Of a DNA stretch of 46,999 nucleotides, positions 3,620 to 46,999 are shown piece by piece; the stretch's first letter is position 1; the number at the start of each line of letters is the position of its first letter. The translations under genes and the position numbers were made by a program. Under the pieces are notes generated by a model. The model was not told where the DNA came from. It was given only the letters and a program-made list of their open reading frames with translations, and ran no database searches. The stretch comes from Candidatus Colwellbacteria bacterium (GTDB lineage: Bacteria; Patescibacteriota; Minisyncoccia; UBA6257; Colwellbacteraceae), in NCBI GenBank assembly GCA_023228665.1, contig JALOAR010000002.1, forward strand, positions 1-46,999, given 5' to 3'.

Positions 3620-3629
3620 TAATAAAAAA

Positions 3630-5559: not shown

Positions 5560-5584
5560 CCTTAATAGCCTTAATCAGGCAACC

Positions 5585-5613
5585 AAAGAACGGTCATAAC
5601 CGTTCTTTTTTTT
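5585..5613 (+). terminator. Intrinsic terminator
   Basis: AAAGAACGGT / ACCGTTCTTT stem with a 4-nt loop, followed by a T-run. Confidence 0.7.
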
Positions 5614-5702
5614 ACAAAGAACACGCGTAAAAACGCTCCCTCTGGCATATTTAATGCATATATGTGTATAATTTGCCCGTTAGTCTAAAAAGCATTTATG
5701 GG

Positions 5703-5731
5703 TTGACAAAATGATAATTAAATGCTAATAA
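5703..5731 (+). promoter_or_regulatory. Sigma70-like promoter for the large surface protein
   Basis: TTGACA, 17-nt spacer ending in TGc, then TAATAA. The -10 overlaps the first listed ATG (5722), which argues for the 5740 start. Confidence 0.45.
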
Positions 5732-5739
5732 TTAAAGTT

Positions 5740-8349
5740 ATGAAAGCTATGAAAAAAATAATACCAATTATAGCTGCTATCTCCGTTATTTTTAGCGGAT
5801 TTAGTGGAGTGGCTCTTGCTTCTAGCTCGCCCTCCGTTGTTGCTACGGAAGCGTCGTCCATTACTTCAACATCAGCTTATCTTAAAGGATACGTAGATCC
5901 TAATGGCTCATCCACCGAATATTGGATAGAGTATGGGACAAATAATGATTTTCAATATTCAACTATACGCTACACTGTCGGAAGCAGCAGCTCCGGTATT
6001 TCGGTAGGCAGAAATGTTACTGGACTTACAGCCGGAAAAACCTATCAATATAAATTGATAGCAAAAAATGCTAGCGGTACGAATAAGAGTAATGTGGTGT
6101 CGTTTACTACTACCAACAGTTCTTCTTCTTCAAATAACGATAATAATGACAATTCTAGCGATAGTGGAAATCCTCCGTCAGTCGCCGCTACCAGTGTCAC
6201 TTCTAAAACTTCAAGCGCCGCTACTCTTAACGGTTCGGTAGATGCAAACGGAAAATTAACTGAATACTGGATAGAGTACGGAACAAATAACAATTTCCAG
6301 TATTCTACCATTAGGTACTCAATCGGAAGCTCTAGTTATGCAATCGGCGTAAGCCGAAGAGTTACCGGTTTATCTGCTAGCACTACTTATCAATATAAAG
6401 TAATCGCCAGCAATTCTGCCGGCAAAAATGTAAGCAACGTCGTTGAATTTACGACTTCAGGATCTTCTAACGAAAATACCAACGATGAACCCAGTATTGG
6501 CAACGCTCCTTCTGCTGTTGCTACTGGTTATTCTTCAGTTACTTCTAATTCCGCAAATATTTCCGGTTCTATAGATCCTAACGGTCTTTATACTGAATAT
6601 TGGGCAGAATATGGTACGAATAATTCTTTCAGCTCGCGAACTTCAAGCTATTATATTAGCTCAAGCGACAGTTCTAAGTCTGTTAATTTGTCTTTATCCG
6701 GACTTTCTTCAAATACTGTTTATAAGTTTAAATTTATAGCCAAGAATTCTAAAGGGTCTATTGCCAGCAATGTTATGCAATTTACCACTAGTTCTTCCGG
6801 TTCCATAGTCACTGAAGGTGATGCTCCGAGCGTTAGTCTTTCTTCTGCTTATAGTATAACTAAAGATTCAGCTGTTCTTTCAGGATCAGTTAACCCAAAC
6901 AGTTCATGGACAGAATATTGGTTTGAGTATGGAACTAACAGTAATAGTCTCGTTTATTCAACGCCTAAATGGTCTGTAAGCTCTACGTCTGGAAATACTC
7001 CGGTTTCTTCATCCGTTTATAATCTCCAAAATAATACCACTTACTACTACAGGCTTGTTGCTAATAATTCTTACGGAACAAGATATAGCTCTGTGTGGAA
7101 CTTCATAACCCAGGGAGGCGGGGGAACCCAATATAACAACCCTTACGTTGTTACTAGAGAAACAACTGAAAAATACTCTACATCAGCCGTTTTAAACGCT
7201 GATGTGTCCCCGAACGGCTACCAGACTGATGTTTGGTTTGAATATGGATATTCGAACCAAAGCTTAAATCGTGTTTCTGGAAGCAAGTCAATATCAGGCA
7301 ACAGCGGTTCGCAAAGAGTGTCTATTCAAATAAACAATCTTTCTCCGAACACTTATTACGATTTCCGCGCCGTTGCGAGAACTTCGTATGGAACTTTCTA
7401 TGGCGATACAATGTCCTTTAGAACTTCTGGGCAAAATAACGGATATTACGGAGAGCCCCAAGTAGTTACTATTGGAGTATCCAACGTATTGCAGAACGTC
7501 GCAGTATTGGAAGGTAGCGTTAATCCGAATGGCTCTGCCGGCAGCGTATGGTTCGAGTATGGAACGTCAGCTTACAACTTGAATAATAAAACTACTTCCA
7601 TCTCGGTTCCTTCGCATATCGCCTTAAAAAATTATTATATAGCTGCTACCGGATTATCTGCCTCTACCACTTATTACTATAGAGTTGTCTGCTCTAATGC
7701 TTATGGCACTAAAAGCGGAGAAATAAAGTCTTTTAAGACTTCCGGCTATTGGAAGCCTTATAGTGGCCCAACCGAAAAAGAAATAATTGTCATTAAAGAG
7801 CATGTATCTACAGATGAAGAATCTGGAGTTATCCTTGATCCGTCTGTCAGCAATCTTGAGCCCAAAGCAGGCGATACTATCGATTACGTGCTGACTTATC
7901 GTAATGCTTCTAAAAAAGCTATTACTGGCGCTTCTCTTAAAGTAACTCTTCCGTTTGAAACGGAGTATGTTAACTCTAACGTTAAACCAACATCTCAAAT
8001 GGGAAATAATCTCGTCTTCTATATCGGAGATGTAGAAAAGGGCAGTCAGGGAGTAATAACCATAAAGGCTAAAATTAACGAAGATACCGCTGAAGGATCT
8101 AGTATTATGTTTAACTCTTTCCTTGAATATACCGATGGTGATGATGATTTTCAGACGGTAAATTCTTATATTGCCGTAATGATTAAAGGAAGTGCCAATA
8201 TAGGATTTCTTGGATCATTAAGTTCTCTTGCTAAATCTCTTTCCGGAAGCTGGCTTATGTTGATATTGCTTCTCTTGATGTTTGTCACCATAATTTACCT
8301 TCTTATTACTAGAAAAAAGCAAGCTGTTGTTGAAAACTCATCCCAATAA
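5740..8349 (+). CDS. Large cell-surface protein: signal peptide, six Fn3-like modules, DUF11-like domain, C-terminal TM anchor
   Basis: MKAMKKIIPIIAAISVIF signal-like N-terminus. By my reading there are six modules of about 100 aa, each with (D/N)PNG..T(E/D)(Y/V)W(I/F)EYG. LTYRN...VITIKAKIN resembles a DUF11 / conserved repeat domain. Hydrophobic tail followed by RKK. The ORF track starts it at 5722. Confidence 0.8.
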   Translation: MKAMKKIIPIIAAISVIFSGFSGVALASSSPSVVATEASSITSTSAYLKGYVDPNGSSTEYWIEYGTNNDFQYSTIRYTVGSSSSGISVGRNVTGLTAGKTYQYKLIAKNASGTNKSNVVSFTTTNSSSSSNNDNNDNSSDSGNPPSVAATSVTSKTSSAATLNGSVDANGKLTEYWIEYGTNNNFQYSTIRYSIGSSSYAIGVSRRVTGLSASTTYQYKVIASNSAGKNVSNVVEFTTSGSSNENTNDEPSIGNAPSAVATGYSSVTSNSANISGSIDPNGLYTEYWAEYGTNNSFSSRTSSYYISSSDSSKSVNLSLSGLSSNTVYKFKFIAKNSKGSIASNVMQFTTSSSGSIVTEGDAPSVSLSSAYSITKDSAVLSGSVNPNSSWTEYWFEYGTNSNSLVYSTPKWSVSSTSGNTPVSSSVYNLQNNTTYYYRLVANNSYGTRYSSVWNFITQGGGGTQYNNPYVVTRETTEKYSTSAVLNADVSPNGYQTDVWFEYGYSNQSLNRVSGSKSISGNSGSQRVSIQINNLSPNTYYDFRAVARTSYGTFYGDTMSFRTSGQNNGYYGEPQVVTIGVSNVLQNVAVLEGSVNPNGSAGSVWFEYGTSAYNLNNKTTSISVPSHIALKNYYIAATGLSASTTYYYRVVCSNAYGTKSGEIKSFKTSGYWKPYSGPTEKEIIVIKEHVSTDEESGVILDPSVSNLEPKAGDTIDYVLTYRNASKKAITGASLKVTLPFETEYVNSNVKPTSQMGNNLVFYIGDVEKGSQGVITIKAKINEDTAEGSSIMFNSFLEYTDGDDDFQTVNSYIAVMIKGSANIGFLGSLSSLAKSLSGSWLMLILLLLMFVTIIYLLITRKKQAVVENSSQ

Positions 8350-11954: not shown

Positions 11955-12974
11955 ATGAGAACTAAAATAATAGCTACTATAGGCCCTAAATCCGAATCGC
12001 CAGAAATGCTTCGCAAGCTTGTTCTTGCTGGAATGGATATAGCAAGAATGAATTTTTCCCATTGCACTTATGACGAATACCTTGCTAGAAAAGAAGCCCT
12101 TAAAAAAATATGTAAAGAAGAAAAAAGGGACGTTAAAATACTTCTTGACCTTAAAGGCCCTCGTTTAAGAGTAGGTGAGCTTCCTGAAGAAGGAAGAGAG
12201 TTATATAAAGACGAAGAAATTATTTTTTCCACCAATAAAGACGAAGCTAAAGATGGCACTATTTTTATTGAAGACCCGCATCTTCACAAAGATATTAATG
12301 TAGGAGATCCTCTCTTCTTAACTAATGGAGCTATGGAGCTTGTAGTCACTAAAATTGAAGAAACAAAGATATTCGCTACAGTATTGACCGGAGGCATACT
12401 TTTTTCCAATAAGGCCGTTAACGTTCCTATGACTACGCTTACTACTTCTAGCCTTACCAATAAGGATATTGACGATATCCAATTCGGCCTGGAGCATGGA
12501 ATGGATTACGTCGCTCTTTCTTTTGTTCAAACCAAAGAGGATGTTGAAAGGTTAAGAGCTCTAGTTGGGGACAAAGCCAAGATAATTTCTAAAATAGAAC
12601 GCCCGATTGCCGTTAAAAATATTGATACTATTATCCAGGCATCCGACGCGGTTATGATTGCAAGGGGAGACCTTGGCATAGAAATGCCTATGGAAGATAT
12701 TCCAACCGTCCAAAAGCATATAATCGAACATGCCGCTTGGAATAATATCGGCTCAATAGTTGCCACACAAATGCTTCTCTCTATGATTGATAAAAATCAC
12801 CCGACAAGAGCTGAAGTGTCTGATGTCGCTAATGCGGTTTTTGACGGCGCCGACGCAGTAATGCTTTCTGATGAAACTGCTACAGGAGATTATCCAGTCG
12901 AAGCGGTAGAATTTATGGCAAAAATAGTGCGTAAGGCAGAGAAATATTTATATTCAAAGCCAAACCATATGTAA
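11955..12974 (+). CDS. pyk: Pyruvate kinase (short form, 339 aa)
   Basis: MRTKIIATIGP, MNFSHC, ARGDLGIEMP and MLSDETA motifs. The protein ends soon after the A domain. Confidence 0.9.
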   Translation: MRTKIIATIGPKSESPEMLRKLVLAGMDIARMNFSHCTYDEYLARKEALKKICKEEKRDVKILLDLKGPRLRVGELPEEGRELYKDEEIIFSTNKDEAKDGTIFIEDPHLHKDINVGDPLFLTNGAMELVVTKIEETKIFATVLTGGILFSNKAVNVPMTTLTTSSLTNKDIDDIQFGLEHGMDYVALSFVQTKEDVERLRALVGDKAKIISKIERPIAVKNIDTIIQASDAVMIARGDLGIEMPMEDIPTVQKHIIEHAAWNNIGSIVATQMLLSMIDKNHPTRAEVSDVANAVFDGADAVMLSDETATGDYPVEAVEFMAKIVRKAEKYLYSKPNHM

Positions 12975-13010
12975 TTAGTTTTGATAGAAATATATATAAG
13001 ATAATAAAAA

Positions 13011-13047
13011 AGCGCCTGCCTGCCATTTGGCGGATAGGCGCTTTTTT
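13011..13047. terminator. Bidirectional terminator between convergent genes
   Basis: AGCGCCT ... AGGCGCT stem flanked by an A-run and a T-run. Confidence 0.7.
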
Positions 13048-13052
13048 GTTTT

Positions 13053-13649
13053 TTATAAGGTGCTAACTATGCCGAGATTTTTTTGAAATATTTCTCTGAT
13101 ACAATCCATTGTCGAAACAAAAATAGTTCTCTCACCTTCTTTAAATGCCTTTTCCATATTCATAATTTTCCCAAAAAAATTATCGCCGTCTTCTGATTCA
13201 GACTCTGATGCTACTCCTAATATCAATTTCTCGTCACGCATTAAAAAATCAACAAAAGCCATAAAATATTCCATTATTATGAGCCATGCTTCAGTGTTCC
13301 TATACTCCTTTCGTACCACTATTGACTCCATAATAACATTATGAACAATCTTTGAATCAAAACTAACTATACTGCCTAAGCAATCCCTCCAATTGTGTAC
13401 CGAAGCTTTGCCTTTGCAAAAATCTTTAAAAAAAGATGATGTCACTGACAGCACTAACATTCCGCCGACAACCAAGCCGTTATTAGCATAATCCTTAAGA
13501 ATTATTACAGAGCGAGGTGATGCTTTATATATGGCTTTTAAGTCGTTCAGAGTAGATGGCGAATTAGGGAAATAACTCTTTAAAATACTAACTATTTCTT
13601 TCAGGTCGGCCTCTGTCACAGCTTTTGCTATCGAAAAACATGTTTTCAT
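13053..13649 (-). CDS. Hypothetical protein (weak GNAT-like flavour only)
   Basis: GGAGGGG Shine-Dalgarno 5 nt before the ATG. A TTGACT-N17-TAAAAA promoter lies upstream on the minus strand. No motif I can assign. Confidence 0.6.
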   Translation of the reverse strand: MKTCFSIAKAVTEADLKEIVSILKSYFPNSPSTLNDLKAIYKASPRSVIILKDYANNGLVVGGMLVLSVTSSFFKDFCKGKASVHNWRDCLGSIVSFDSKIVHNVIMESIVVRKEYRNTEAWLIIMEYFMAFVDFLMRDEKLILGVASESESEDGDNFFGKIMNMEKAFKEGERTIFVSTMDCIREIFQKNLGIVSTL

Positions 13650-13746
13650 AAAAACCCCTCCAATATATTATTTTTTGAGAACTGGTCGTTTTTTAGCACT
13701 TTTTAAAAAAGTAGTCAACAAAAATGGCGTCACAAAAAAAACGCTA

Positions 13747-13772
13747 AAAAGCCCCGCTAAAACGGGGCTTTT
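13747..13772 (-). terminator. Intrinsic terminator of the ATP-cone gene
   Basis: AAAAGCCCCG / CGGGGCTTTT stem, with T-rich sequence downstream on the minus strand. Confidence 0.65.
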
Positions 13773-13781
13773 CGAATTATC

Positions 13782-14075
13782 TTATTTAAATCTTCTTTCG
13801 TAATCTACCCAAGCAGCAGCTATTGCATTCTTTTTTTCATCCTCTTCGCTGGCAGTTAAGGAATCTATTATTTTATCCCTTATATCTGTTGTATTGACCT
13901 CGTTGCACCTGATCGCAAAAACTATAGTCTCGTAATAAGTCTCTCTGACTATCTTTTCGGCAACTGGTTCCTCTATGCCGGAATCCTGGGCCGCTCTTTC
14001 TAAAGACATCCTTATCTTATCCGCCACAAACGGCTCGCTCGCTCTTCCTCCTTTTTTGAGGATTATATTTGCCAA
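13782..14075 (-). CDS. Standalone ATP-cone domain protein
   Basis: 97 aa. The pattern (I.KK.G..EPF...KI..S...A) is shared with the 19855 ORF and with NrdR/NrdD-type ATP-cones. TTG start, no nearby ATG. Confidence 0.7.
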   Translation of the reverse strand: MANIILKKGGRASEPFVADKIRMSLERAAQDSGIEEPVAEKIVRETYYETIVFAIRCNEVNTTDIRDKIIDSLTASEEDEKKNAIAAAWVDYERRFK

Positions 14076-14129
14076 TTTGCCAATTTATTGTTTGTAGGCG
14101 ACCTTTATTTATTATATCATGAAGACTGA

Positions 14130-14666
14130 ATGGTACTAGAAGCAAGAACTATGCGCTCTGCGGAGTGGCAAAAATACAGAGATTTCAGGCTTAAAGCCTT
14201 GCGTGAAAATCCGGATAGGTTCGATAAGTTGTACGAAGAAGAAAAAGACCTCCCGGATAAGTTTTGGAAGGAGACTATTGCAGAAGCCGATAAAATGGAA
14301 CGTTTTTGGCTGTTTTTTGCTTGGGATACGGATCTCGGGCCTGAATCAATGCCGATAGGTATGATAAGCGCTCTTAAAAGCCCTAACGCCAAAACAAGCC
14401 ATATAGTAACCATATCTGGCCCTTTCGTATCCGTTAAGGAAGGAGGCAGGGGAGTTGAAAGAAAAATGATATCCTATATGCTAAGCAAGCTCTCAAATGA
14501 TAATACTATTAAAAAGCTTCGTTGTTTTATAAAAATAGATGATCCGGAAAAACTGGCTTTATATCAGCAAGAAGGATTTAAGATAATAGGAGAAATGGAA
14601 CAAGAGTTTAAGCTTAAAAGCGGAGGATATATGAATGAATATATCCTCGAAAAAATAGTTTCTTAA
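14130..14666 (+). CDS. GNAT-family N-acetyltransferase
   Basis: N-terminal W..YR..RL.AL...P..F block and a G.GVE.K motif-A-like segment. The start may be the ATG at 14151. Confidence 0.7.
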   Translation: MVLEARTMRSAEWQKYRDFRLKALRENPDRFDKLYEEEKDLPDKFWKETIAEADKMERFWLFFAWDTDLGPESMPIGMISALKSPNAKTSHIVTISGPFVSVKEGGRGVERKMISYMLSKLSNDNTIKKLRCFIKIDDPEKLALYQQEGFKIIGEMEQEFKLKSGGYMNEYILEKIVS

Positions 14667-14685
14667 TTAAGGATAGTCTTCATAT

Positions 14686-14714
14686 TTGACAAATTAATCA
14701 TTATATATCATTAT
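14686..14714 (+). promoter_or_regulatory. Sigma70-like promoter for the DEAD-box helicase
   Basis: TTGACA, 17 nt, then CATTAT. Shares ATATTTGACAAATTAA with the 11798 promoter. Confidence 0.35.
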
Positions 14715-14744
14715 TAGAACCTCGCGTTAATACGCGTTTTTTTT

Positions 14745-15950
14745 ATGACTGAAAGAAAATTTAAGCCGAGACGACATTTTTATGGTGAAAATAAAAAACC
14801 TGGAAAAAGATCATTTCGCAATAATAGAAAATTTGCCGGCGATAATATAAACGTATCTAAATTTATAAACAAGGCCCGCAAGACAGAAGATGTTGAAAAA
14901 TTTGTTCCTAAAAACAATTTCAACTTCCTTCCAATATCCGGAAAACTTAAGGCTAATATCAAAAGAAAAGGATATTCTTCCCTTACCCCTATACAAGATC
15001 AAGCTATCCCTGAAGCCCTAAAAGGCAGGGATATTATAGGCATAGCAAATACCGGAACAGGAAAAACCGCCGCTTTTCTTATTCCTCTCATAGATAAAAT
15101 TTTAAGAAATCGCCAAGAAAAGGTCCTTATTATTGCTCCAACCAGAGAGTTGGCATTTCAAATTCAGGATGAAATGAATGAATTTTCTATGTTTCTTAAT
15201 ATCTATTCGGCAATATGTGTTGGCGGAGTAAATATTAGAAGTCAAATATCCAGGTTAAAAAGAAAGCCTGATTTCGTTATCGGTACGCCTGGGAGATTAA
15301 AAGATCTTGTTTTAAGAAACAACCTTAGATTAAGCGAATACAAAAATTTAGTTCTTGATGAAGCAGATAGAATGCTGGATATGGGTTTCTTGCCTGATAT
15401 TCAATTTCTACTTTCCTCTCTGCCTAAAAAAAGACAGTCTCTTTTCTTTTCTGCAACGATAAATTCAAAAATTGAATCGCTTATAGCCGACTTTGCCGTT
15501 AATCCTTTTAAAATATCCGTAAAAATGAGAGATACTTCAGCTAACGTGGATCAAGATATTGTTAGGATATCTCGCAATGAAAACAAGGTAGATAAGCTGC
15601 ACGATCTTCTTATTGAAAAAGATTTCAATAAAGTGCTTATTTTCGGAAAAACTAAGCGCGGAGTAGAGAATCTTTCAATAGACCTTAATAAGAGAGGATT
15701 TAAGTCAGTATCCATCCACGGCGATAAAAATCAATCGAAAAGGCAAAAAGCATTAAGAGAATTTAAAAATAATAGCGCGCATATCTTAGTAGCGACAGAT
15801 GTTGCTGCCCGCGGATTAGATATCCCAAACGTATCTCATGTCATTAATTTTGATATGCCGTCAACTTACGATGATTATGTTCATCGTATCGGCCGAACCG
15901 GCAGGGCAGACCAAAAAGGCAACGCTCTCACGTTCGTTAATGCGAATTAA
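14745..15950 (+). CDS. DEAD-box ATP-dependent RNA helicase
   Basis: Q-motif region, ANTGTGKTAAF, PTRELA, DEAD, SAT and HRIGRTGR motifs. Confidence 0.93.
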   Translation: MTERKFKPRRHFYGENKKPGKRSFRNNRKFAGDNINVSKFINKARKTEDVEKFVPKNNFNFLPISGKLKANIKRKGYSSLTPIQDQAIPEALKGRDIIGIANTGTGKTAAFLIPLIDKILRNRQEKVLIIAPTRELAFQIQDEMNEFSMFLNIYSAICVGGVNIRSQISRLKRKPDFVIGTPGRLKDLVLRNNLRLSEYKNLVLDEADRMLDMGFLPDIQFLLSSLPKKRQSLFFSATINSKIESLIADFAVNPFKISVKMRDTSANVDQDIVRISRNENKVDKLHDLLIEKDFNKVLIFGKTKRGVENLSIDLNKRGFKSVSIHGDKNQSKRQKALREFKNNSAHILVATDVAARGLDIPNVSHVINFDMPSTYDDYVHRIGRTGRADQKGNALTFVNAN

Positions 15951-27237: not shown

Positions 27238-28527
27238 ATGTCCGCTTTTTACGATAATTTCCATAACAAAAAAACATTTTTAAACTCCTCCACCCAATTC
27301 CACTCTGCACCTTCCTTCACCCTCGTCGAGCTCCTCATAGTAATAGCAATTTTAGCCGTTTTGGCTGCAGCAGTAGTCATTGTCTTGAACCCAGCAGAAC
27401 TCTTGGCCCAAGCTCGAGACTCTGAACGTATAACAGATATGAAGACTCTCAAAGACTCCATAGATATCTGGGTAGTGGATAATCCCAATGTATCCATGGG
27501 CATATCTCAAACAGTATATATCTCCATCCCTGACACCAGCTCTACCTGTGCCAATATCTCTGATCTCCCAGCTCTTCCTTCAGGCTGGGCATACCACTGT
27601 ACAACAGAAGCAAACCTCCAGAATACGGATGGCACAGGCTGGATACCTCTTAACCTCTCATCCATATACGGAGGAAGCCCCATACCTTATTTCCCTATAG
27701 ATCCTTCAAATGAAGCTTCTTCAGGCAAATACTATACATATACTTCAGGAGGTTCATATGAACTGACTGCTCTTATGGAATCTGAAAAGCACTTTGCTAT
27801 GAAAGACGGAGGAAGATATGTAGAGATGTTTGAAGCAGGAAGCAATCTTTCTCTCCTCCCTGTTTCCAGAGATCCTTCTCTTGTAGGCTACTGGCCCTTT
27901 GAAGGATATGGATCCATAGCGGATCTCCAGACTTCTGGCCTTGAAGACTATTCAGGCTATGGAAACAACGGCACCGCAGACAATACAAACGGCCTTGGAA
28001 TGTCTTTTGTTTCCGGGAAAGTTGGCAGTGCCGTGCAGTTTGATGGAGTGGATGATTATGTAAATGGAGGAACACCAACACTCCTAACCACAACTGATGA
28101 TTTCAGTATTTCTGTATGGGTTAATCCCGGAATAATAGAAAATTGGAGCGCTCTGGTAGGGCTTGTTTCTAATAGTAATATAAGAAGATCTCTTTACTTT
28201 TCTCATTCATCCACTCCTATGTATTACACAACTTTTTCGGATGACAATTATTCTACCTTTTATGGAACACCTGAAGGATTAATCGTAGGTAGTTGGATTC
28301 ATATAGTCTTAACCTATGATTATTCATCAAAAACCTATAAATTTTATCAAAATGGATCTTGCACAAAAACAATTAAACGTTCACTACCTGAAAAAATAGA
28401 TTCCAACGCTGTGCTTATCGGAAGAATAGATAACCACTATGGGGACTGCTCCATAGATGAAGTAAGAATATACAATCGCGCTCTCTCTGAAACCGAAATT
28501 AATGCAATATATGAAACCGCAAAATAA
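27238..28527 (+). CDS. Type IV pilin-like protein with C-terminal LamG / concanavalin-A-like domain
   Basis: Class III signal core SFTLVELLIVIAILAVLAA with Glu at +5. LamG-type blocks GYWPFEG, GSAVQFDGVDDYV, SISVWV and DEVRIYNRALSETEI. Confidence 0.75.
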   Translation: MSAFYDNFHNKKTFLNSSTQFHSAPSFTLVELLIVIAILAVLAAAVVIVLNPAELLAQARDSERITDMKTLKDSIDIWVVDNPNVSMGISQTVYISIPDTSSTCANISDLPALPSGWAYHCTTEANLQNTDGTGWIPLNLSSIYGGSPIPYFPIDPSNEASSGKYYTYTSGGSYELTALMESEKHFAMKDGGRYVEMFEAGSNLSLLPVSRDPSLVGYWPFEGYGSIADLQTSGLEDYSGYGNNGTADNTNGLGMSFVSGKVGSAVQFDGVDDYVNGGTPTLLTTTDDFSISVWVNPGIIENWSALVGLVSNSNIRRSLYFSHSSTPMYYTTFSDDNYSTFYGTPEGLIVGSWIHIVLTYDYSSKTYKFYQNGSCTKTIKRSLPEKIDSNAVLIGRIDNHYGDCSIDEVRIYNRALSETEINAIYETAK

Positions 28528-37188: not shown

Positions 37189-38619
37189 TTACTGCCCTTC
37201 ATAATATTTTCCTAAGCTAAAAAGGTCGGAATCATGCCAGTGTTTGCCGATAAGCTGAAACCCTATAGGTAACTTATCAACTCTGCCTTTAACCGGTATC
37301 GATATTGCCGGAAGACCCGCCAAATTAACAGGCACGGTAAATATATCCGATAAATACATCTGTACCGGATCATCTGATTTTTCGCCGAATTTAAAAGGTA
37401 CTGTTGGAGAAGTCGGAGACAATATTACATCAACCTGGTTAAAAGCTTCTATAAAATCTCTCTTTATAAGCTGTCTAACCTTCTGCGCTTTGGCATAATA
37501 CGCGTCATAATATCCGGCCGAAAGAACAAAAGTTCCTAAAAGCATTCTCCGCTTAACTTCTTCTCCAAAACCCGCGCCCCTGGTCTTCATATAAATATCA
37601 AACAAAGAACCATTATTGCTTCCCCGGGAATACCTTATTCCGTCAAACCGCGCCAGATTAGTAGATATCTCGGCAAAAATAATAATGTAATAAGCTGATA
37701 AAGCATACTTGCTATAAGGAAGATTGATCTTTTTTATTTTCATTCCGGCTGAACGGAAAAAATCTACCGTCTCCTGCATAGCTTTAGAAGTTTCATCATC
37801 TAAGCCTGTTCCAGAAAAATATTCATCCGGAATTCCTATGGTTATTGATGAAGGATCGCCTAAATTAAGCTGGCTTTCCCCGGCATTTCTTGAAGTAGCG
37901 TCATGCTTGTCAGCTCCTTTTATCACTGAATATATTTCTTCCGCATCAGCTACAGTTTTTCCAAAAGGACCTATTTGATCCAAACTCGAAGCCATTGCCA
38001 TAAGGCCAAATCGAGATACTCGCCCATACGTAGGCTTCATTCCGACAACGCCGCAAAACGATGCGGGCAACCTTATTGAACCGCCCGTATCAGAACCTAT
38101 TGCGCCAAGAGCCATTCTTCCGGCAACAGCCGCCGCCGAGCCTCCGGAAGAACCCCCCGGAACTCTCTCTGTATCTACTGGATTTTTAGTCGGACCAAAT
38201 GCAGAATTTTCAGTTGAAGAACCCATAGCAAACTCATCCATGTTAGCCTTTCCTAAAAATACTGCCCCGGCGGTCCTTAATTTCTTTATAACTGTAGCAT
38301 CATAGGCTGATACATAATCCTTAAGCAGTTTAGAAGCCGAGGTACATACTTCATCTTCTATTAATAAATTGTCTTTTATAGCTAAAGGCGCTCCGCAAAG
38401 AGGACCCGCATCTTCTCCCGCTTTTATTTTTTCATCAATCTCTTTTGCAGACGCAATCGCCTCTTCCTCTCTTATGGATATATAAGCATTTATTTCCTGA
38501 TTCTTTTGCTTAGCTTCTTTTAAAAACTCGCTAGTTACTTCCTCCGCCGAAAAATCTCCAGAAACAATTCCATCTCTTACATCTTTTATGCTTAAAATAT
38601 TTTTATCCATACTAATCAT
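37189..38619 (-). CDS. gatA: Glu/Asp-tRNA amidotransferase subunit A
   Basis: Amidase signature GGSSGGSAAAVA...GSDTGGSIRLPA. Confidence 0.93.
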   Translation of the reverse strand: MISMDKNILSIKDVRDGIVSGDFSAEEVTSEFLKEAKQKNQEINAYISIREEEAIASAKEIDEKIKAGEDAGPLCGAPLAIKDNLLIEDEVCTSASKLLKDYVSAYDATVIKKLRTAGAVFLGKANMDEFAMGSSTENSAFGPTKNPVDTERVPGGSSGGSAAAVAGRMALGAIGSDTGGSIRLPASFCGVVGMKPTYGRVSRFGLMAMASSLDQIGPFGKTVADAEEIYSVIKGADKHDATSRNAGESQLNLGDPSSITIGIPDEYFSGTGLDDETSKAMQETVDFFRSAGMKIKKINLPYSKYALSAYYIIIFAEISTNLARFDGIRYSRGSNNGSLFDIYMKTRGAGFGEEVKRRMLLGTFVLSAGYYDAYYAKAQKVRQLIKRDFIEAFNQVDVILSPTSPTVPFKFGEKSDDPVQMYLSDIFTVPVNLAGLPAISIPVKGRVDKLPIGFQLIGKHWHDSDLFSLGKYYEGQ

Positions 38620-38908
38620 TATTTTTCATTACTCCGGGAACCTTTAAATAGCCATCTTTAGTTTCCGGAAAAGATTCGATTCCTTTTTGCAAAAGACCTT
38701 TATCAATATCATCAGCTTCCGCCTGATTAACCATATCGGAAGCACCAGACATCGGAGAAATGTTGTCTGTATTTACATCTTTTAATTGTTCAAAATACTC
38801 AAGAATATTTTCGGCATCCTTAACTAGCCCTGCTTCCTTTCCTTCTATATCTATTCTTGCAAGCTGGGCAAGCCTCTCTATATCTTCTTTTTTTATATCT
38901 TTCAGCAT
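38612..38908 (-). CDS. gatC: Glu/Asp-tRNA amidotransferase subunit C
   Basis: I prefer the start at MLKDIKKEDIERLAQLARI (canonical GatC N-terminus) over the listed 38944. Overlaps the gatA start. Confidence 0.8.
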   Translation of the reverse strand: MLKDIKKEDIERLAQLARIDIEGKEAGLVKDAENILEYFEQLKDVNTDNISPMSGASDMVNQAEADDIDKGLLQKGIESFPETKDGYLKVPGVMKNND

Positions 38909-39021
38909 TACAAGATTTATAATACCCGCAAGCGCCATACCCATGCAAACAACAATTTGCGCATTATCCCAAGCCTGTCGAAGGATAAAAAAACCGTTGC
39001 TTTAAGCAACGGCCGTTCTGG

Positions 39022-39543
39022 TTAAAAATTAACCACTTTTTTTAAAATTTTTCCTCCTAATTCAGGCGAATACAAGTCCACGATCTCAATGTTAACTTTT
39101 GTTCCGCCATTATTTTTGTTCTCATAGACAATATGGCCCAGGCCTTTACCCAAAATATTCTGCGCCATTTCCGCATTAGCAGAAATAAACATTACTTTAG
39201 AAAAAGGCTTTAGCTCGTCAATTTCTTTCAAAGTTTCCGCGTCCACCTCTAGAGGAATTCCTTCAACTCTATGGGAAATAAAAACAACTGCAGTTTTTCC
39301 CGCCGGTAACTCCAAATCATTTTCTCCTATAATCGCTACACAGCCAAGAGTTATACAACTACCATCGAAACTGACTAAAGCTCTGATTAAGCTTTGTTTG
39401 AGTTCTTCGATTTCTTTCTCGCGATCCTCCTCCGTATGTTTTTTAAAATCTCTCCTTCTTAATTCATAAACCCTTTCAGCTGTTTCAGCAGCCAGTTCGA
39501 CTAGAGAACCATCTCTTCCGTCATCAAAGCCATAATTGTACAT
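39022..39543 (-). CDS. Divergent GreA/GreB-like protein (tentative)
   Basis: Start at MYNYG, with GGAAGGGAG upstream. Charged coiled-coil-like N-terminal half. The C-terminal ISANAEMAQNILGKGLGHIVYE...TKVNIEIVDL resembles the GreA C-terminal domain pattern IS..SP.A.ALLGK..GD.V. Confidence 0.45.
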   Translation of the reverse strand: MYNYGFDDGRDGSLVELAAETAERVYELRRRDFKKHTEEDREKEIEELKQSLIRALVSFDGSCITLGCVAIIGENDLELPAGKTAVVFISHRVEGIPLEVDAETLKEIDELKPFSKVMFISANAEMAQNILGKGLGHIVYENKNNGGTKVNIEIVDLYSPELGGKILKKVVNF

Positions 39544-39688
39544 AGTTCTTTCTCCCTTCCTTTTTTGAGTTTTTAAAAGACCTTCCAAGTCTTAAGCTTA
39601 AATATAACCACAAAAACCAAGAAAGTCAATAAATAAATTTCTTTTATTATTCTAAGCTTTTTATGCCCAGCCACTATTTTTGTTCTTT

Positions 39689-42110: not shown

Positions 42111-42138
42111 AAAAACCCGCCAATGAGGCGGGTTTTTT
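42111..42138. terminator. Terminator after the 967-aa gene
   Basis: AAAAACCCGCC-AATGA-GGCGGGTTTTTT. Same stem family as the hairpins at 45824 and 46759. Confidence 0.7.
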
Positions 42139-42149
42139 CTTCTCTTCTT

Positions 42150-45053
42150 TTAATTTAATGTTTTCTTTAATCCCTCGCTTATAGATCCTATAAGATTAAA
42201 GAAGCTATCTTTAAATGAAGGTGACTTCTCCTCAAGGTAAGGTTCGAACACTTTAACTTCGTAACTCTCTGTATCCGAATCTTGGTAGCAATGCAGCGGA
42301 TCCGTATTATCCCTATTTCTGCAAGTTATTTCATAATCAGTTGTTGTTTGAGGCTGAAGATTTTTAACCTCCCCGGAAGAATTAAGCCTATCCATATTCC
42401 CTGTCGATGTTACCCAGCCAGTATCATCGCCGATAGATATGCTCGGCGTACATTTTAGAGTTGTCGGCGTCCCAGAGTTCGGCTTGCTAACATTCCAAAT
42501 TAAATTTATAAGCTGGTTAAGAAGAATCTGCGGTTTAGATGGATCAGTTGTTAAATTATTCGTCGGTATGCCCGGCTCCTCAATAAACCTGACTAATTGC
42601 GAATCCGAATCAGACGAAGAACAAATGTCTCCAGAACGGACAGTTTGGTCATATTCATAATATCGACAAGAATAACTAAGGCACGGTTCGCAGTCTTCGT
42701 ACTTAACACAATCATATTCCTCAGGCTTAAATATCGGCTGTCCGGTAATCGGATCATACCCGATAAACACCTGTCTAGTACAAGTTGTATCATACGGACA
42801 CTGTGTCCAATTGGTACAGTGACTACCGCTTGGATTAGATGAGGAGTTCCACCTCACATCGCAACTTCCGCTAGAACAAGAGCAAGAAGTAATAGCATCA
42901 TACCTTCCCTCTAAATAGTCACAGCTATCTTCACATTCGTCATCGTTCCTACTGCCATAGCCATCAAAGGTGTTGTAATCAGTACACCTATACGAATCCC
43001 TGGTACAACTCGCTGAATATGTTTGCGTACTGCTTGGCGTATCCGTCTCACTGCCGGAAATACTTGAAGAACCAGATCTGCTAAAATTCCAATTACTCGA
43101 ACTATCAGAGCAAGATATATTTCTATTTGAGGGGCTCCCGCCTCCAATTATCGAAGAACATACATTATTAACAGAACCGCTCCAATTTATTGTCGTCTGC
43201 CTTACCTCTGGAGAAGGATTATTTCCATTTGGATGGTAAGGAAGACAATCCCTAGTCGCTGAAACATTCGTTGATACGGAACGCGGACCGCTATAGCATG
43301 AACCCGCACCGACACTTACCGTAGCGCTATCTGAACAAGAGCCCGCGCCAACCGCATCGCAGCTTAAGGTATAAGTAGTTGTAGATGAAGGGCTTACAGA
43401 TCTGGAGCCCGATGTAGAAACAGCGCCAATACCCTGATTTATCGAACAACTGGCTGTTCCGCTCGTACTCCAGCTTAGATTAGACGACTGCCCGGAAGTT
43501 ATAGACGAAGGATTTGCCGTTAAATTAGCCGTGCATCCGCCACTGCCCACATTCACAGTTACTGAATCGCTCTTTATTACATCAGGATTGGCGCTATAAG
43601 CGCAAGAAAGCGTATATTCATAATTCCCTTCATCATTAAATGGTCCCACTGTTTCACTGCCTCCAGAAAGAACCGATCCGGTTATACTCGGACTTGTCGG
43701 ATCTGAAGGATCGGCGCTTATACTGCAATTACTCGCCCTATCCGTAGACCAAGAAATATTAGTAGTATCTCCTTCGCTTATAGAAGAAGGTAAAGCATTT
43801 ATATCAACATCAAAAGCGCATATTGCGTTCGGCTCATAAGTAACATCATCCCAGCCGTCATCGCAGATAACTCCCCCGCTCATATTCCAATTATCGTCAG
43901 TCCACGTCGCCATATTGCCCAACTGATCCGGATTATTACTGCACCTACTGCAATAAGCTATACACGAACTCCCGGTATCTTGTATCTCAAGCGTTGAGCC
44001 GTCTGCGGGATCAAATATTGATTCATCAGGACATCCGCCAAACTCTTCTCCAGAAACATAAACCGATACCTCTTTTGAAGCTGATGTTTCTATACTATCT
44101 CGCCGAAAACCTCCGGCGTATTCGCTATAATATTGTTTACAAGTAATTTCATACGTATAAGGCTCCTCTCTCGGCGTTAAGTCGCTTGCCCTAACAGTGT
44201 AGCTGCCACTCGTATCCCCGCCAGTATTAATATCTGATGAATAGCACTCCCTTGCATTGGAAGCCGACCAAGATATATCTGTACTTTCTCCCGGTTTAAT
44301 CGTAACGCTCGATTTATTCACGCCATCAAGAAGAAGATTTACTACCGGTGGAACCGGGCATGTCGGCCCTCCTTGGCTGCAATTTGCAGATGACGGCGTC
44401 CACCCCACGCAATAAACAGTTCTGGAAGTATAAGGACATACTCCTTCTTCAGGAGGTATGCCGTCTTGAACGCTAGGACCATCTGCTACAGCACTCCTCG
44501 GAACATAACTCCCGCCTTCTTGATTACAGCATATTTTATAGCTAGACCCCGCCGAACAATTACAATAACCATAATTTAATAAAGGAGTAACCGAAGGACT
44601 ACCCTCGCCGCATTCATTAGTAGCGCACTTATCAGAAGTAGAACAGACATTACCGGCAAGATAATAAGTAATACTAAATTCATAATAATAAATATAACTC
44701 CCATCCCAAGCTAATTCTTGAAATCGCTCTTTTATTTTAACTATTCTATTTTGTTCCCATGGACCAGTTTGGTTAGCATAAATCAAACAATCTGCTCTTA
44801 CTTCATCAAAAACTGGATCTTGGCAAAGAGGAACACAGGCCGGTTCCGTACAATTAGAACTCGTATTACTTCCGCTATTCTGGCAAACTTTTTCTTCACA
44901 ATCTATAACATTTGGCGAAGAGCAAATTTCATTCACGCATTCTTCTGTAAACCTATCCGTATCACAAGCTGAAGCATTTACAACACTAGAAAATAAAAAA
45001 CCAACCGCAAAAACAGAAAATAAAATCGTTAATAATAAAAATATTTTTTTCAT
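42150..45053 (-). CDS. 967-aa secreted cysteine-rich, Ser/Gly/Thr-rich protein with repeated Ig-like modules (unknown family)
   Basis: Signal peptide MKKIFLLLTILFSVFAVGFLFSSVVNASA. About 56 Cys by my count. At least four modules with the pattern (I/L)SWS....C.......Y.(L/I).C. No C-terminal anchor. The start overlaps the upstream stop (ATGA). Confidence 0.8.
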   Translation of the reverse strand: MKKIFLLLTILFSVFAVGFLFSSVVNASACDTDRFTEECVNEICSSPNVIDCEEKVCQNSGSNTSSNCTEPACVPLCQDPVFDEVRADCLIYANQTGPWEQNRIVKIKERFQELAWDGSYIYYYEFSITYYLAGNVCSTSDKCATNECGEGSPSVTPLLNYGYCNCSAGSSYKICCNQEGGSYVPRSAVADGPSVQDGIPPEEGVCPYTSRTVYCVGWTPSSANCSQGGPTCPVPPVVNLLLDGVNKSSVTIKPGESTDISWSASNARECYSSDINTGGDTSGSYTVRASDLTPREEPYTYEITCKQYYSEYAGGFRRDSIETSASKEVSVYVSGEEFGGCPDESIFDPADGSTLEIQDTGSSCIAYCSRCSNNPDQLGNMATWTDDNWNMSGGVICDDGWDDVTYEPNAICAFDVDINALPSSISEGDTTNISWSTDRASNCSISADPSDPTSPSITGSVLSGGSETVGPFNDEGNYEYTLSCAYSANPDVIKSDSVTVNVGSGGCTANLTANPSSITSGQSSNLSWSTSGTASCSINQGIGAVSTSGSRSVSPSSTTTYTLSCDAVGAGSCSDSATVSVGAGSCYSGPRSVSTNVSATRDCLPYHPNGNNPSPEVRQTTINWSGSVNNVCSSIIGGGSPSNRNISCSDSSSNWNFSRSGSSSISGSETDTPSSTQTYSASCTRDSYRCTDYNTFDGYGSRNDDECEDSCDYLEGRYDAITSCSCSSGSCDVRWNSSSNPSGSHCTNWTQCPYDTTCTRQVFIGYDPITGQPIFKPEEYDCVKYEDCEPCLSYSCRYYEYDQTVRSGDICSSSDSDSQLVRFIEEPGIPTNNLTTDPSKPQILLNQLINLIWNVSKPNSGTPTTLKCTPSISIGDDTGWVTSTGNMDRLNSSGEVKNLQPQTTTDYEITCRNRDNTDPLHCYQDSDTESYEVKVFEPYLEEKSPSFKDSFFNLIGSISEGLKKTLN

Positions 45054-45775
45054 TGCGCCTCAATCAATTGGACTAATTGATTCAAATATTCTACTGGATC
45101 TTCAGATCGAGTAATGTCCTTATCCCAACTAGCTTCAGGATAAAAAATTAAACTGGTTTCTTCTTTGACATAGTTCTCATAAACTAGTCTATCAGAAACT
45201 TTCATTACACCAATTGGATCACCCTTATTAACAAGTGTATCATTAGCCGGAATTGGTTTAACGCCATAACCAGCAAATCTAAACGACTTGTTACGATTAG
45301 GATCATTAGCCTCTTCAATAGTTGAAGCTGGTTTCCATAAACCGTCTTTAGTAACTATAATCTCTCCTCTTCCGCTTCCATCACTCTCCGTATTCAAATA
45401 TTTTATATACCCGTCTATTGGAGAGTATAGTGTAATCTCTTCCTTATCTTGGATGTTGAAACCTATACCAGACAATCTTTCTCCGTCAGAGTTATGAGGA
45501 ATGAAAGCGCTAGCACAATTTTCTTCATTTAAAATCAAACAATCGCCTATTTTTTCTCCCATTCTCGATAAAACTCCCGGGAAATAATTTACTATAGGAA
45601 ACTCGCCTTCTTCTTCAGGCTCGCTAACAGTACCTTCTTCTTCAACAGGAATCCCTTGTTCTGTAGGGACTCTTGTAAGCATTTCGGGATTTGTAACTAT
45701 CAAATAAGCCAATACAGCGCCAACCAAAATAATCAAAACCGCTCCAGCTACTAAGAAAGTGTTCTTTCTCGTCAT
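45050..45775 (-). CDS. Membrane-anchored paralogue 1 of an unassigned family
   Basis: N-terminal TM helix, acidic linker, conserved C-terminal domain (SAFIPH, SGIGFN, YSPIDGYI, PASTIEEANDPNRNK, WDKDITRSEDPVEYL). The stop overlaps the start of the 967-aa gene. Confidence 0.7.
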   Translation of the reverse strand: MTRKNTFLVAGAVLIILVGAVLAYLIVTNPEMLTRVPTEQGIPVEEEGTVSEPEEEGEFPIVNYFPGVLSRMGEKIGDCLILNEENCASAFIPHNSDGERLSGIGFNIQDKEEITLYSPIDGYIKYLNTESDGSGRGEIIVTKDGLWKPASTIEEANDPNRNKSFRFAGYGVKPIPANDTLVNKGDPIGVMKVSDRLVYENYVKEETSLIFYPEASWDKDITRSEDPVEYLNQLVQLIEAQ

Positions 45776-45823
45776 ATTTATAATTATAAACCATCAGACT
45801 AAATACAAACATGTGGATATACT

Positions 45824-45852
45824 AAAAACCCGCCATATGCCAATGGCGGGTT
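45824..45852 (-). terminator. Terminator after paralogue 2
   Basis: AACCCGCC-N10-GGCGGGTT with TTTTT on the minus strand. Confidence 0.65.
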
Positions 45853-45898
45853 CTGTAGCATTCATTTAAAAGTTCTCTTCTCATAAATACCCCCATCT

Positions 45899-46666
45899 TC
45901 ATTTCTCCATAATTTCCAAGAGCTGTTTCAGATATTCTCTTGGATCTTCATCTCTTTGGATATCTTTGTCCCAATCCGTTTCCGGCACAAGTATTAAAGA
46001 AACTTCTTCTTTTAACTTGTCTGTCAAAATAACTTTTTCGGAATTAACAACTGCTATTTCCTTTCCTTTTTTAACAAACGAATCATTAACAACTAAAGAT
46101 TCAATCCCATAACCGATCAACATAATAGTTTTGTTTCGATTAGGATCATTAAGTTCCTCTATCGTAGATGCTGGCACACGAGGAGCATTAGCAGTTATTG
46201 AAAGAAATGCTTCTCCTCCAGATTTGTTGAAAAAAATCTGAACATATCCATCTGTCGGAGAATATACAGTTACCTCTTTTCCTAGAAAGTTAAACCCGAC
46301 ACCAGAAGCTATATTTCCAGTAGATTTATCGTGAGGATAAAAAGCACTTTCCCACAACTCATCTTTCACAACAAGCGGCAATCCTGCGGGAATAACTTCT
46401 GCTGATTCTGTAGGTTTTACTTCTTGTGTTGAGGTTTGTTCGCTAACCTGTTCGGTTACTTCCGGTTCAGAAGGAATAACAACATTGTTCTCCTGTACAG
46501 GTTCTGTTTGTATTGGTTCGGTTTTACTTTTCTCCAAAGATTCCGTAACTGTCGGTTCAACCACTATAATTTTTTTATCCTTATTAGTTGGACGATTAAA
46601 AAATAAAATAATAGCAACAAGTACAATAATAAGAATAATTAACAAAAACCTTTTAAATCTAAACAT
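45899..46666 (-). CDS. Membrane-anchored paralogue 2
   Basis: Same architecture and conserved blocks as 45050-45775 (SAFYPH, SGVGFN, YSPTDGYV, PASTIEELNDPNRNK, WDKDIQRDEDPREYL). Confidence 0.7.
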   Translation of the reverse strand: MFRFKRFLLIILIIVLVAIILFFNRPTNKDKKIIVVEPTVTESLEKSKTEPIQTEPVQENNVVIPSEPEVTEQVSEQTSTQEVKPTESAEVIPAGLPLVVKDELWESAFYPHDKSTGNIASGVGFNFLGKEVTVYSPTDGYVQIFFNKSGGEAFLSITANAPRVPASTIEELNDPNRNKTIMLIGYGIESLVVNDSFVKKGKEIAVVNSEKVILTDKLKEEVSLILVPETDWDKDIQRDEDPREYLKQLLEIMEK

Positions 46667-46753
46667 ATAAATCCATCCTTTCTAATCAAAAAAATATTTT
46701 TAAATAACATAATGTCTTTATTTGAAATACCATTAAATTATTATTTAGTCAAG

Positions 46754-46882
46754 ATACTAAAAACCCGCCATATGCCAATGGCGGGTTCTGTAGCATTCAT
46801 TTAAAAGTTCTTTCATAAATACCCCCATCTTCATTTCTCCATAATTTCCAAGAGCTGTTTCAGATATTCTCTTGGATCTTCA
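46754..46882. repeat. Direct repeat of 45819-45950 (3' end and terminator region of paralogue 2)
   Basis: Identical by eye except for one 3-nt indel (ctcttctcat versus ctttcat). Confidence 0.9.
46759..46787 (-). terminator. Terminator after paralogue 3 (copy of 45824-45852)
   Basis: Sequence identical to the hairpin at 45824. Confidence 0.65.
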
Positions 46883-46999
46883 GATCGAGTAATGTCCTTA
46901 TCCCAACTAGCTTCAGGATAAAAAATTAAACTGGTTTCTTCTTTGACATAGTTCTCATAAACTAGTCTATCAGAAACTTTCATTACACCAATTGGATCA
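46831..46999 (-). CDS. Paralogue 3, C-terminal part only (5' end beyond the window); mosaic of paralogues 1 and 2
   Basis: Translates to ...DPIGVMKVSDRLVYENYVKEETSLIFYPEASWDKDITRSEDPREYLKQLLEIMEK*. The body is identical to paralogue 1 and the last 13 residues are identical to paralogue 2. Confidence 0.65.
   Translation of the reverse strand, partial: DPIGVMKVSDRLVYENYVKEETSLIFYPEASWDKDITRSEDPREYLKQLLEIMEK
46873..46999. repeat. Direct repeat of 45095-45221 (inside paralogue 1)
   Basis: 127 nt identical by eye, running to the window edge. The junction with the other repeat is the shared TGGATCTTCA. Confidence 0.9.

Follow-up and report, generated by a model that had tools for sequence, protein, structure and literature searches.

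Results and Discussion

Genes and transcription units of the locus

The window analysed here is a complete contig of 46,999 nucleotides (nt) from a Candidatus Colwellbacteria bacterium (GenBank assembly GCA_023228665.1, contig JALOAR010000002.1), and at its end lies, on the minus strand, an array of tandem genes for small membrane-anchored proteins that leads into the gene of a large, cysteine-rich secreted protein, called exoprotein in the following. The exoprotein of 967 amino acids (aa) is encoded at 42150–45053. Upstream of it, paralogue 1 (241 aa, 45050–45775) and paralogue 2 (255 aa, 45899–46666) each encode a transmembrane (TM) helix, an acidic linker (Glu/Pro/Thr-rich in paralogue 2) and a degenerate LytM-like domain, and they represent the two subtypes of the family described below, the Cys-pair type and the W-type, respectively. 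Paralogue 3 (46831–46999) is read from its open reading frame (ORF) as a C-terminal fragment of the W-type which is cut by the contig end, its final 55 codons and the stop occupying 46831–46998. The array runs into the contig end at position 46999 and copies are counted only up to this edge. An earlier interpretation made from the letters alone (the sequence-only reading) had proposed three tandem minus-strand paralogues, and these were found as described, the third one being the fragment at the contig end.

Each of the two upstream paralogues is followed by a copy of a 58-nt repeat on the minus strand, one at 46754–46811, which ends the transcript of paralogue 3, and one at 45819–45876, which terminates paralogue 2. 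Both copies are 100% identical and form on the coding strand a hairpin of −26 kcal/mol (z = −5.2) followed by UUUUU. A third, GC-rich hairpin (AAAAACCCGCC-loop-GGCGGGTTTTT, 42111–42137, assigned to neither strand) is located 13 nt downstream of the stop codon of the exoprotein gene; it is terminator-like and has the same stem (AACCCGCC/GGCGGGTT) as the 58-nt repeats. From the hairpins after paralogue 3, paralogue 2 and the large ORF, the likely transcription units are paralogue 3, paralogue 2, and paralogue 1 together with the exoprotein gene. Direct reading of the DNA also confirmed the claim that the stop of the last paralogue overlaps the start of the 967-aa ORF in an ATGA at 45050–45053. 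Judged from these sequence features, paralogue 1 is likely to be co-transcribed and translationally coupled with the exoprotein gene, and the upstream W-type copies are likely to be transcribed separately with their own terminators.

The small proteins carry a degenerate LytM-like domain

Paralogues 1 and 2 are 46% identical over 164 aa (E = 1e-44), and all five sequence blocks noted previously (SAF.PH, SG.GFN, YSP.DGY, PASTIEE.NDPNRNK and WDKDI.R.EDP.EYL.QL) could be found in them. Both also have the hydrophobic helix at the N-terminus and the acidic linker assigned to them in the sequence-only reading. In paralogue 1 the TM helix spans residues 7–27, in agreement with the AlphaFold2 (AF2) model showing a helix at residues 2–28 and disorder at 32–88, and helix and linker recur in nearly all of the approximately 40 family members. 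In P0029, P0045 and P0058 lipobox-like signals (GGC/SGC/MGC) replace the plain TM helix. Thus, the small proteins are predicted to be bitopic membrane proteins, some relatives being lipoproteins, with an extracytoplasmic domain. This domain starts with GDCLILNEENCASAF in paralogue 1 and with LVVKDELWESAF in paralogue 2, which contains no cysteine at all. According to the segment that precedes the domain core, 14 of 40 members belong to the Cys-pair type ('G.CL(I/V)......C..A') and 24 to the W-type ('NF(I/V)V..E.W..A'). Directly after the TM helix we also observed a juxtamembrane motif of approximately [ND]-P-E-x-L-T-[RK]-x-P-x-E (residues 28–39 of paralogue 1), kept in many members of both subtypes and with the proline present in at least 90%.

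The extracytoplasmic domain had been described as unplaceable in any known family, which is too strong, since four independent methods ranked peptidase M23/LytM first. A Foldseek search with the model of paralogue 1 gave as best structures LytM (2b13/2b44), phi29 gp13, LasA, the LytM domain of EnvC (8c0j_B), SpoIIQ (3uz0_B) and lysostaphin, with target-normalised template modelling scores (TM-scores) of 0.5–0.55 and weak E-values of 1.5e-3 to 1e-2. The Pfam profile PF01551 was matched by 7 of 40 family members (E ≤ 0.1), all below the family threshold, the best scores being 26.5, 26.0 and 24.2 bits against a cut-off of 28.7. A search of the PDB sequences with a shallow profile of eight small-protein sequences gave nothing; with the 40-member profile, the peptidase M23 5kqb came first (E = 0.009), followed by LECT2, TagE and LytM. 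Finally, the LytM domains of MepM, NlpD and EnvC from E. coli (MG1655 record) were aligned and compared with the family by hhalign, which gave a probability of 81.7% (E = 1.1e-5, 73 columns). The aligned M23 blocks G-x-[DG]-F, P-x-G-T-x-V-x-A-x-x-D-G-x-V and V-K-x-G-x-x-I-A follow each other in the right order and spacing.

In the PDB-profile and hhalign alignments the M23 motif 'H-x-G-x-D-F' pairs with 'x-x-G-x-G-F' of the family; in place of 'HYGIDF' (5kqb) and 'HRGVDF' (MepM), paralogue 1 has 'LSGIGF' and the consensus of the family 'xGGvGF'. None of the sequences in the 40-member alignment has the zinc ligands H-x3-D and H-x-H; just two glycines are invariant in it, and no histidine or aspartate is invariant or nearly so. 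By score threshold as well as by catalytic residues the family falls outside Pfam Peptidase_M23 (MEROPS M23), and it belongs to the looser class of degenerate LytM (dLytM) domains, to which it is assigned by its LytM-like match in four methods and the loss of the ligands. As fold search, sub-threshold Pfam matches, PDB profile search and hhalign agree, the domain is best described as a very divergent, non-catalytic LytM/peptidase-M23-like domain on a membrane anchor. A side remark of the sequence-only reading, which mentioned a degenerate LytM-like fold without the HxH site, had therefore pointed to the right assignment, whereas, of the three roles it had offered for the small proteins (tether, escort or process), processing of the exoprotein is unlikely in the absence of metal ligands.

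The likeness to M23 might also reflect nothing but a generic barrel-sandwich-hybrid motif, as present in lipoyl/biotinyl domains, HlyD, EIIA and RNA polymerase inserts, and the domain would then be a new member of this wider superfold with an unrelated binding role, not derived from LytM. Every M23 score is under the family threshold, the scan of the window paralogues gave a weak PTS_EIIA_1 match (E = 0.028), EIIA-Glc and the RNA polymerase β′ insert appear in the Foldseek list, and the YSPIDGY motif also caught a HlyD-type adaptor in Rufibacter. However, the first rank of M23/LytM in four independent methods and an alignment that covers three consecutive M23 blocks in right order and spacing make a purely generic likeness distinctly unlikely.

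The exoprotein

The large protein contains 56 cysteines and a signal-peptide-like N-terminus (MKKIFLLLTILFSVFAVGFLFSSVVNASA), followed by an N-terminal Cys-rich domain (residues ~30–235; 44349–44966, minus strand), immunoglobulin (Ig)-like modules, a central Cys-dense module and a C-terminal amphipathic tail. A signal peptide, about 56 cysteines and the lack of an anchor had all been claimed before and hold true, with neither a TM segment nor an LPXTG anchor found in the sequence, and instead of 'at least four' Ig-like modules we counted five β-sandwich modules (residues ~237–335, 415–505, 508–582, 593–690 and 838–935) with the signature 'W..(S/T)..C ... Y.(I/L).C'. The ORF is intact in close relatives. 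Its true orthologues P0008–P0013 have in common the Cys-rich head, the Ig-like modules, the motifs IIGGGSPS, SCSCS.GS and KPQILLNQ and the tail 'VKVFEP.LEEKSP...', and the same shared motifs are carried by the exoproteins of the related contigs L001, L014 and L015. The head motifs CST.DK, G.C.C....YK.CC and P.E..C occur in all orthologues including a distant fragment on contig L007. The conserved tail (42153–42260, minus strand; 'VKVFEPYLEEKSPSF..F..IG.I.EGLK') has a predicted helix at residues 948–966; it is not a TM segment and corresponds to no known sorting signal, and it is also kept in L010, a contig from a metagenome-assembled genome (MAG) with a 72%-identical LigA, where it is found at the contig start, 1.5 kb from ligA. 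The more distant matches P0014–P0022 share one or two Ig-like domains only and come from contexts outside the candidate phyla radiation (CPR).

The observation that the large gene is GC-richer than its neighbours is correct (0.424 vs 0.35–0.38) but has no special meaning. The excess is confined to codon position 2 (0.527), with an ordinary value of 0.33 at the third position (GC3), and thus results from the Ser/Thr/Gly/Cys/Pro content and not from a foreign origin; horizontal transfer was rejected for this reason. Long antisense ORFs, previously thought to be restricted to this gene, are not, as ORFs of at least 100 aa overlap other genes all over the window (e.g., 1380–1940 and 4611–5012). 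Searches with Pfam, NCBIfam and PHROGs gave for the 967-aa protein only a match of PHROG 2155 ('virion structural protein') to the Ig-like repeats (residues 392–581, window 43311–43880, E = 3e-25); structural proteins of phages therefore contain this type of Ig-like domain as well. Eight orthologues scanned against Pfam at E ≤ 1 returned noise only, and an exoprotein profile found nothing among the PDB sequences. The top Foldseek structures for the 967-aa model were alpha-2-macroglobulin (A2M) and complement C3, which are likewise strings of β-sandwich domains. This was rejected as a generic likeness of tandem β-sandwiches: TM-scores are 0.08–0.16 with a root-mean-square deviation above 14 Å, the exoprotein has no visible thioester (CGEQ) motif and none of the eight orthologues gave a Pfam A2M match.

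A strain-variable cassette within the exoprotein gene

Comparison with contig L019 revealed a strain-variable cassette of ~300 nt at 42670–42965 (minus strand), corresponding to residues ~697–794 in the central Cys-dense module. The DNA on both sides is 99.3–99.9% identical to L019, whereas blastn aligns nothing across the cassette (counterpart in L019 at 2271–2572), the encoded segment (residues ~689–796) being only ~40–50% identical to the L019 allele (P0008) and the amino acid identity depressed from ~685 to 800. The same break points recur in L002 (counterpart at 2203–2504) with flanks of 94–97% identity. The allele of the window resembles that of the much more distant orthologues P0012 and P0013. 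Such a localised replacement of alleles is what would be expected of a surface-exposed recognition or antigenic determinant. For an episymbiotic life with host interaction, as supposed in the sequence-only reading, the cassette would be the one, indirect, indication. A diversity-generating retroelement was considered and rejected, since the 47-kb window contains neither a second copy of the cassette nor a template repeat and the alleles are too different to be aligned as DNA. In the orthologue on L001 (1009 aa, 12015–15044) the variable module holds short Cys/His-rich tandem repeats (CYDTCHDTCYDTCYDKCY, NCNPHNCNGHNCNPHNCNPHN), which may reflect metal binding or slippage-driven variation.

Tandem small membrane proteins beside a large secreted protein with a swappable cassette are also reminiscent of toxin/immunity-like or phage-derived modules, in which case the exoprotein might act as a polymorphic effector or form a virion-like structure and the small paralogues would confer immunity, and the match to PHROG 2155 could be read in the same direction. 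Several results speak against it: the PHROG match is confined to the Ig-like repeats, Pfam and NCBIfam scans of the window proteins revealed no toxin domain and no phage genes nearby, the variable cassette is internal and not a C-terminal toxin tip, and the small genes are located upstream and not downstream of the large one. A scan of the IMG/VR contigs showed no relatives of the small-protein family, hence a phage origin is not supported. Altogether we regard a module of this kind as extremely improbable.

Conservation of the gene pair

That the paralogue family is recurrently adjacent to large Cys-rich proteins had been suggested as a test of the proposed module, and the adjacency is indeed conserved and tightly coupled in divergent relatives. 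None of the outcomes that the sequence-only reading had named as refuting its proposal occurred in a form that would overturn it. The same order was found in seven independent loci: one or more paralogues come first, and the final copy directly adjoins the beginning of the large gene or overlaps it. Besides the window (upstream paralogues 3 and 2, last paralogue 1, 4-nt ATGA overlap, exoprotein of 967 aa with 56 Cys), these are L001, a 323.9-kb contig with upstream copies of 284 aa and 401 aa (the latter with a double domain), a last copy of 238 aa, a 1-nt overlap and an exoprotein of 1009 aa with 65 Cys; L013/L014, with an upstream copy of 271 aa (plus one of 255 aa in L013), P0055 as the last copy, a 2-nt gap and 947 aa with 58 Cys; and L015 (NCBI GCA_964601595.1), with an upstream copy of 288 aa, P0032 as the last copy, a 1-nt gap and 894 aa with 62 Cys. 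The remaining three are shorter and begin with an upstream fragment: L007 (last copy P0035, 4-nt overlap, large gene partial), L012 (last copy P0041, signal peptide of the large gene only) and L006 (last copy P0030, 2-nt gap, large-gene start only), where the downstream gene comprises just the first 27 aa, which are signal-peptide-like and too short for orthology to the Cys-rich protein to be read. In every locus of known position the copy adjoining the exoprotein gene is of the Cys-pair type, and the upstream copies are of the W-type wherever their N-terminal segment is on the contig; those of L006 and L012 are C-terminal fragments without a readable subtype. In L015 a radical SAM/SPASM-domain gene (4795–5799), not present in the other loci, follows ~430 nt downstream of the Cys-rich orthologue, which could be a coincidence or a maturase.

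The small proteins and the exoprotein might nevertheless be functionally unrelated neighbours, their tight spacing resulting from operon packing. CPR genomes are gene-dense and overlaps of stop and start codons are common in them, also in this window, where 1311–2399 overlaps the preceding 230–1333 and 38612–38944 overlaps 37189–38619, which it precedes. On the other hand, the same order and coupling are found in loci whose small proteins are just 17–35% identical, the coupling persists where the flanking genes differ, and the Cys-pair form is always the one next to the exoprotein gene, which leaves a chance association very unlikely.

Paralogues within a locus are 37–90% identical compared to 17–35% for the same type across loci, and the sequences bear what look like direct traces of homogenisation by gene conversion. 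In paralogue 3, a mosaic, the first 42 aa are those of paralogue 1 and the last 13 aa those of paralogue 2. A full-length gene of paralogue 3 (P0003, 310 aa) is present in L008 (1–1206) and contains a 426-nt tract with 99.5% DNA identity to paralogue 1, followed by the intergenic region otherwise found between paralogues 2 and 1; mosaic and tract point to gene conversion, unequal crossing-over or an assembly chimera. As the dimorphism of Cys-pair type and W-type is kept despite this homogenisation, the two forms presumably do different jobs. The copy number differs even between 96%-identical strains, L013 having an additional W-type paralogue (3250–4017) which is missing in L014. This additional copy is P0029, with the lipobox-like 'LGGC' signal in place of a plain TM anchor. 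We also noticed that short-read contigs from several samples end in or beside the array or the large gene (window end 46999, starts of L002, L019, L010 and L011, L008), the start of L010 lying inside the large gene itself.

Distribution, host and cell wall context

The family is exceedingly small. An exhaustive profile search of 1.84 billion representative sequences (E ≤ 1e-3) resulted in 47 matches, nearly all of 210–290 aa with the domain at the C-terminus, and a word-indexed search of 5.8 billion sequences found seven family proteins. The motif Y[SA]P[IT]DGY[IV]x[YFI] identified just two contigs in a metagenome scan, both already known, and no family member across 185,579 GTDB species genomes; the only GTDB match, the HlyD-type efflux adaptor from Rufibacter mentioned above, is a spurious match due to the generic hybrid motif.

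A CPR-type host, as assumed in the sequence-only reading, is supported by the adjacent LigA, whose best named matches (64–72% identity) are from MAGs of 'Parcubacteria group bacterium' and 'Candidatus Colwellbacteria', and by the order ligA-gatC-gatA-pheS-pheT-gyrB-nusG-L11-gatB, which is the same in such a Parcubacteria/Colwellbacteria MAG. Among the other genes of the window are those for glycolytic enzymes and ScpAB, a PG_binding_1 protein (4249–5559), an 875-aa FN3/DUF11 surface protein (5722–8349) and a pilin-like protein with an N-methylation motif and LamG (27238–28527). A 188-aa ORF without family match (39022–39588) lies between ligA and gatC, and the same slot is taken by an unannotated ORF of 140–173 aa in the relatives L010 and L019. 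The window also encodes a penicillin-binding protein, an LD-transpeptidase/DD-carboxypeptidase and MraY, and the organism thus makes a cell wall.

With peptidoglycan-synthesis genes present, the degenerate LytM proteins might act as hydrolase regulators like EnvC, NlpD and ActS, activating an amidase or endopeptidase for peptidoglycan that is encoded elsewhere, and would open the wall locally for crossing or insertion of the exoprotein or serve in ordinary wall growth or division. In Proteobacteria, degenerate LytM factors activate the amidases AmiA, AmiB and AmiC, and the EnvC LytM domain (8c0j_B) is among the Foldseek structures, just as EnvC and NlpD contribute to the alignment behind the hhalign probability of 81.7%. 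Both groups have a dead M23 domain, and by analogy with EnvC, NlpD and ActS its former substrate groove may bind another protein. In contrast to these factors, the proteins described here have no coiled-coil, LysM or lipoprotein-plus-LysM architecture, and no amidase, FtsEX, LysM or coiled-coil element was found in the seven loci or in the flanks covered, those of L001, L013–L015 and the window. Moreover, a general wall role would predict neither the strict pairing with one exoprotein family nor the narrow distribution, with 47 matches in 1.84 billion sequences, none in the single-motif scan of the 185,579 GTDB genomes and a restriction to one CPR clade. A role as hydrolase regulator is thus unlikely, if still worth considering.

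A model for the locus

As the best explanation we tentatively favour, short of calling it probable, that the locus is a lineage-restricted envelope gene cassette in which non-catalytic LytM-like receptors tether or position an anchorless Cys-rich adhesin in a manner analogous to SpoIIQ. Because it has no metal site, the degenerate LytM domain is most likely a protein-binding module. Acting as a docking module, it would capture the exoprotein where membrane and wall meet, and hold it on the cell surface or place it there. The exoprotein itself would be an adhesin or recognition protein with its variable module under diversifying selection, and the W-type copies could serve as alternatives to the coupled copy or assemble together with it. 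A more far-reaching version, according to which two position-specific subtypes of dead LytM proteins form a CPR surface-display system by docking a disulfide-rich multi-Ig adhesin, with the variable cassette setting the host-cell specificity of episymbiotic Parcubacteria, appears rather unlikely to hold in full.

Several points weigh against a tether of this kind. The AF2 model of paralogue 1 is of moderate confidence (mean predicted local distance difference test (pLDDT) score 57.7, core 68–83), the Foldseek E-values are weak (1e-3 or worse) and the list includes the barrel-sandwich-hybrid folds of EIIA-Glc and the RNA polymerase β′ insert, and searches with Pfam, NCBIfam and PHROGs assigned the window paralogues to no family. 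The model of the exoprotein is poor (pLDDT 48.3), and the Pfam, NCBIfam and PDB-profile scans gave no known counterpart for its N-terminal domain, its central module or its tail, so that it is the architecture that suggests an adhesin. In addition, the coupling of the genes indicates co-expression and not a physical interaction between small protein and exoprotein.

Among known systems, the EnvC/NlpD class and SpoIIQ (and SpoIVFA) of endospore-formers come closest, the latter two having a single N-terminal membrane anchor, a linker and an ectodomain with LytM fold. SpoIIQ of B. subtilis has lost the metal ligands, and its ectodomain docks the separately made SpoIIIAH. SpoIIQ binds SpoIIIAH and EnvC binds the regulatory helix of an amidase, and the proposed receptors would use their domain in a comparable way. 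For the SpoIIQ ectodomain, a degenerate LytM domain, a mode of action by protein–protein contact has been proposed (PMC3817522). The proteins of the present locus differ from it in showing no detectable sequence homology beyond the fold and no sporulation context, in being encoded by tandem, gene-converting arrays of two conserved subtypes, and in their proposed partner, a secreted, Cys-rich multi-Ig protein of 900–1000 aa from the same operon. With the active M23 enzymes LytM, lysostaphin, LasA and MepM they share the order of the conserved blocks and probably the core fold, but H-x3-D and H-x-H are absent from every family member and no active paralogue is encoded in the loci. The paralogous LytM proteins Csd1 and Csd2 of Helicobacter, an active/inactive pair, act together (PMC5053510) and are a precedent for a co-assembly of W-type and Cys-type copies.

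For the exoprotein, the nearest parallel within the CPR is offered by the large Cys-rich extracellular proteins of Peregrinibacteria, for which a role in attachment has been put forward (PMC4736985). These resemble it in their large size, signal peptide, very high cysteine content, strain-level variation and proposed attachment role, and differ in being a separate protein family with no Pfam domains in common. Disulfide machinery of the MdbA/VKOR type is commonly encoded by CPR bacteria (bioRxiv 10.1101/335083). In our literature search, no publication connected LytM-like proteins with Cys-rich exoproteins of CPR bacteria or described the replaceable cassette.

Conclusion

Little is known about surface assembly and the recognition of partner cells in CPR bacteria, and most of their envelope proteins are without annotation. 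Within the narrow scope of one Parcubacteria clade, the genes described here give an orphan family a probable fold and a likely non-enzymatic role, and their conserved order ties this family to one family of Cys-rich exoproteins, in which a module of ~100 residues that is swapped between near-identical strains is the obvious candidate for a specificity determinant. If the small proteins do tether the exoprotein, the use of dead LytM domains for docking, as known from sporulation and cell division, would also occur in a further phylum and with a partner of a different kind.

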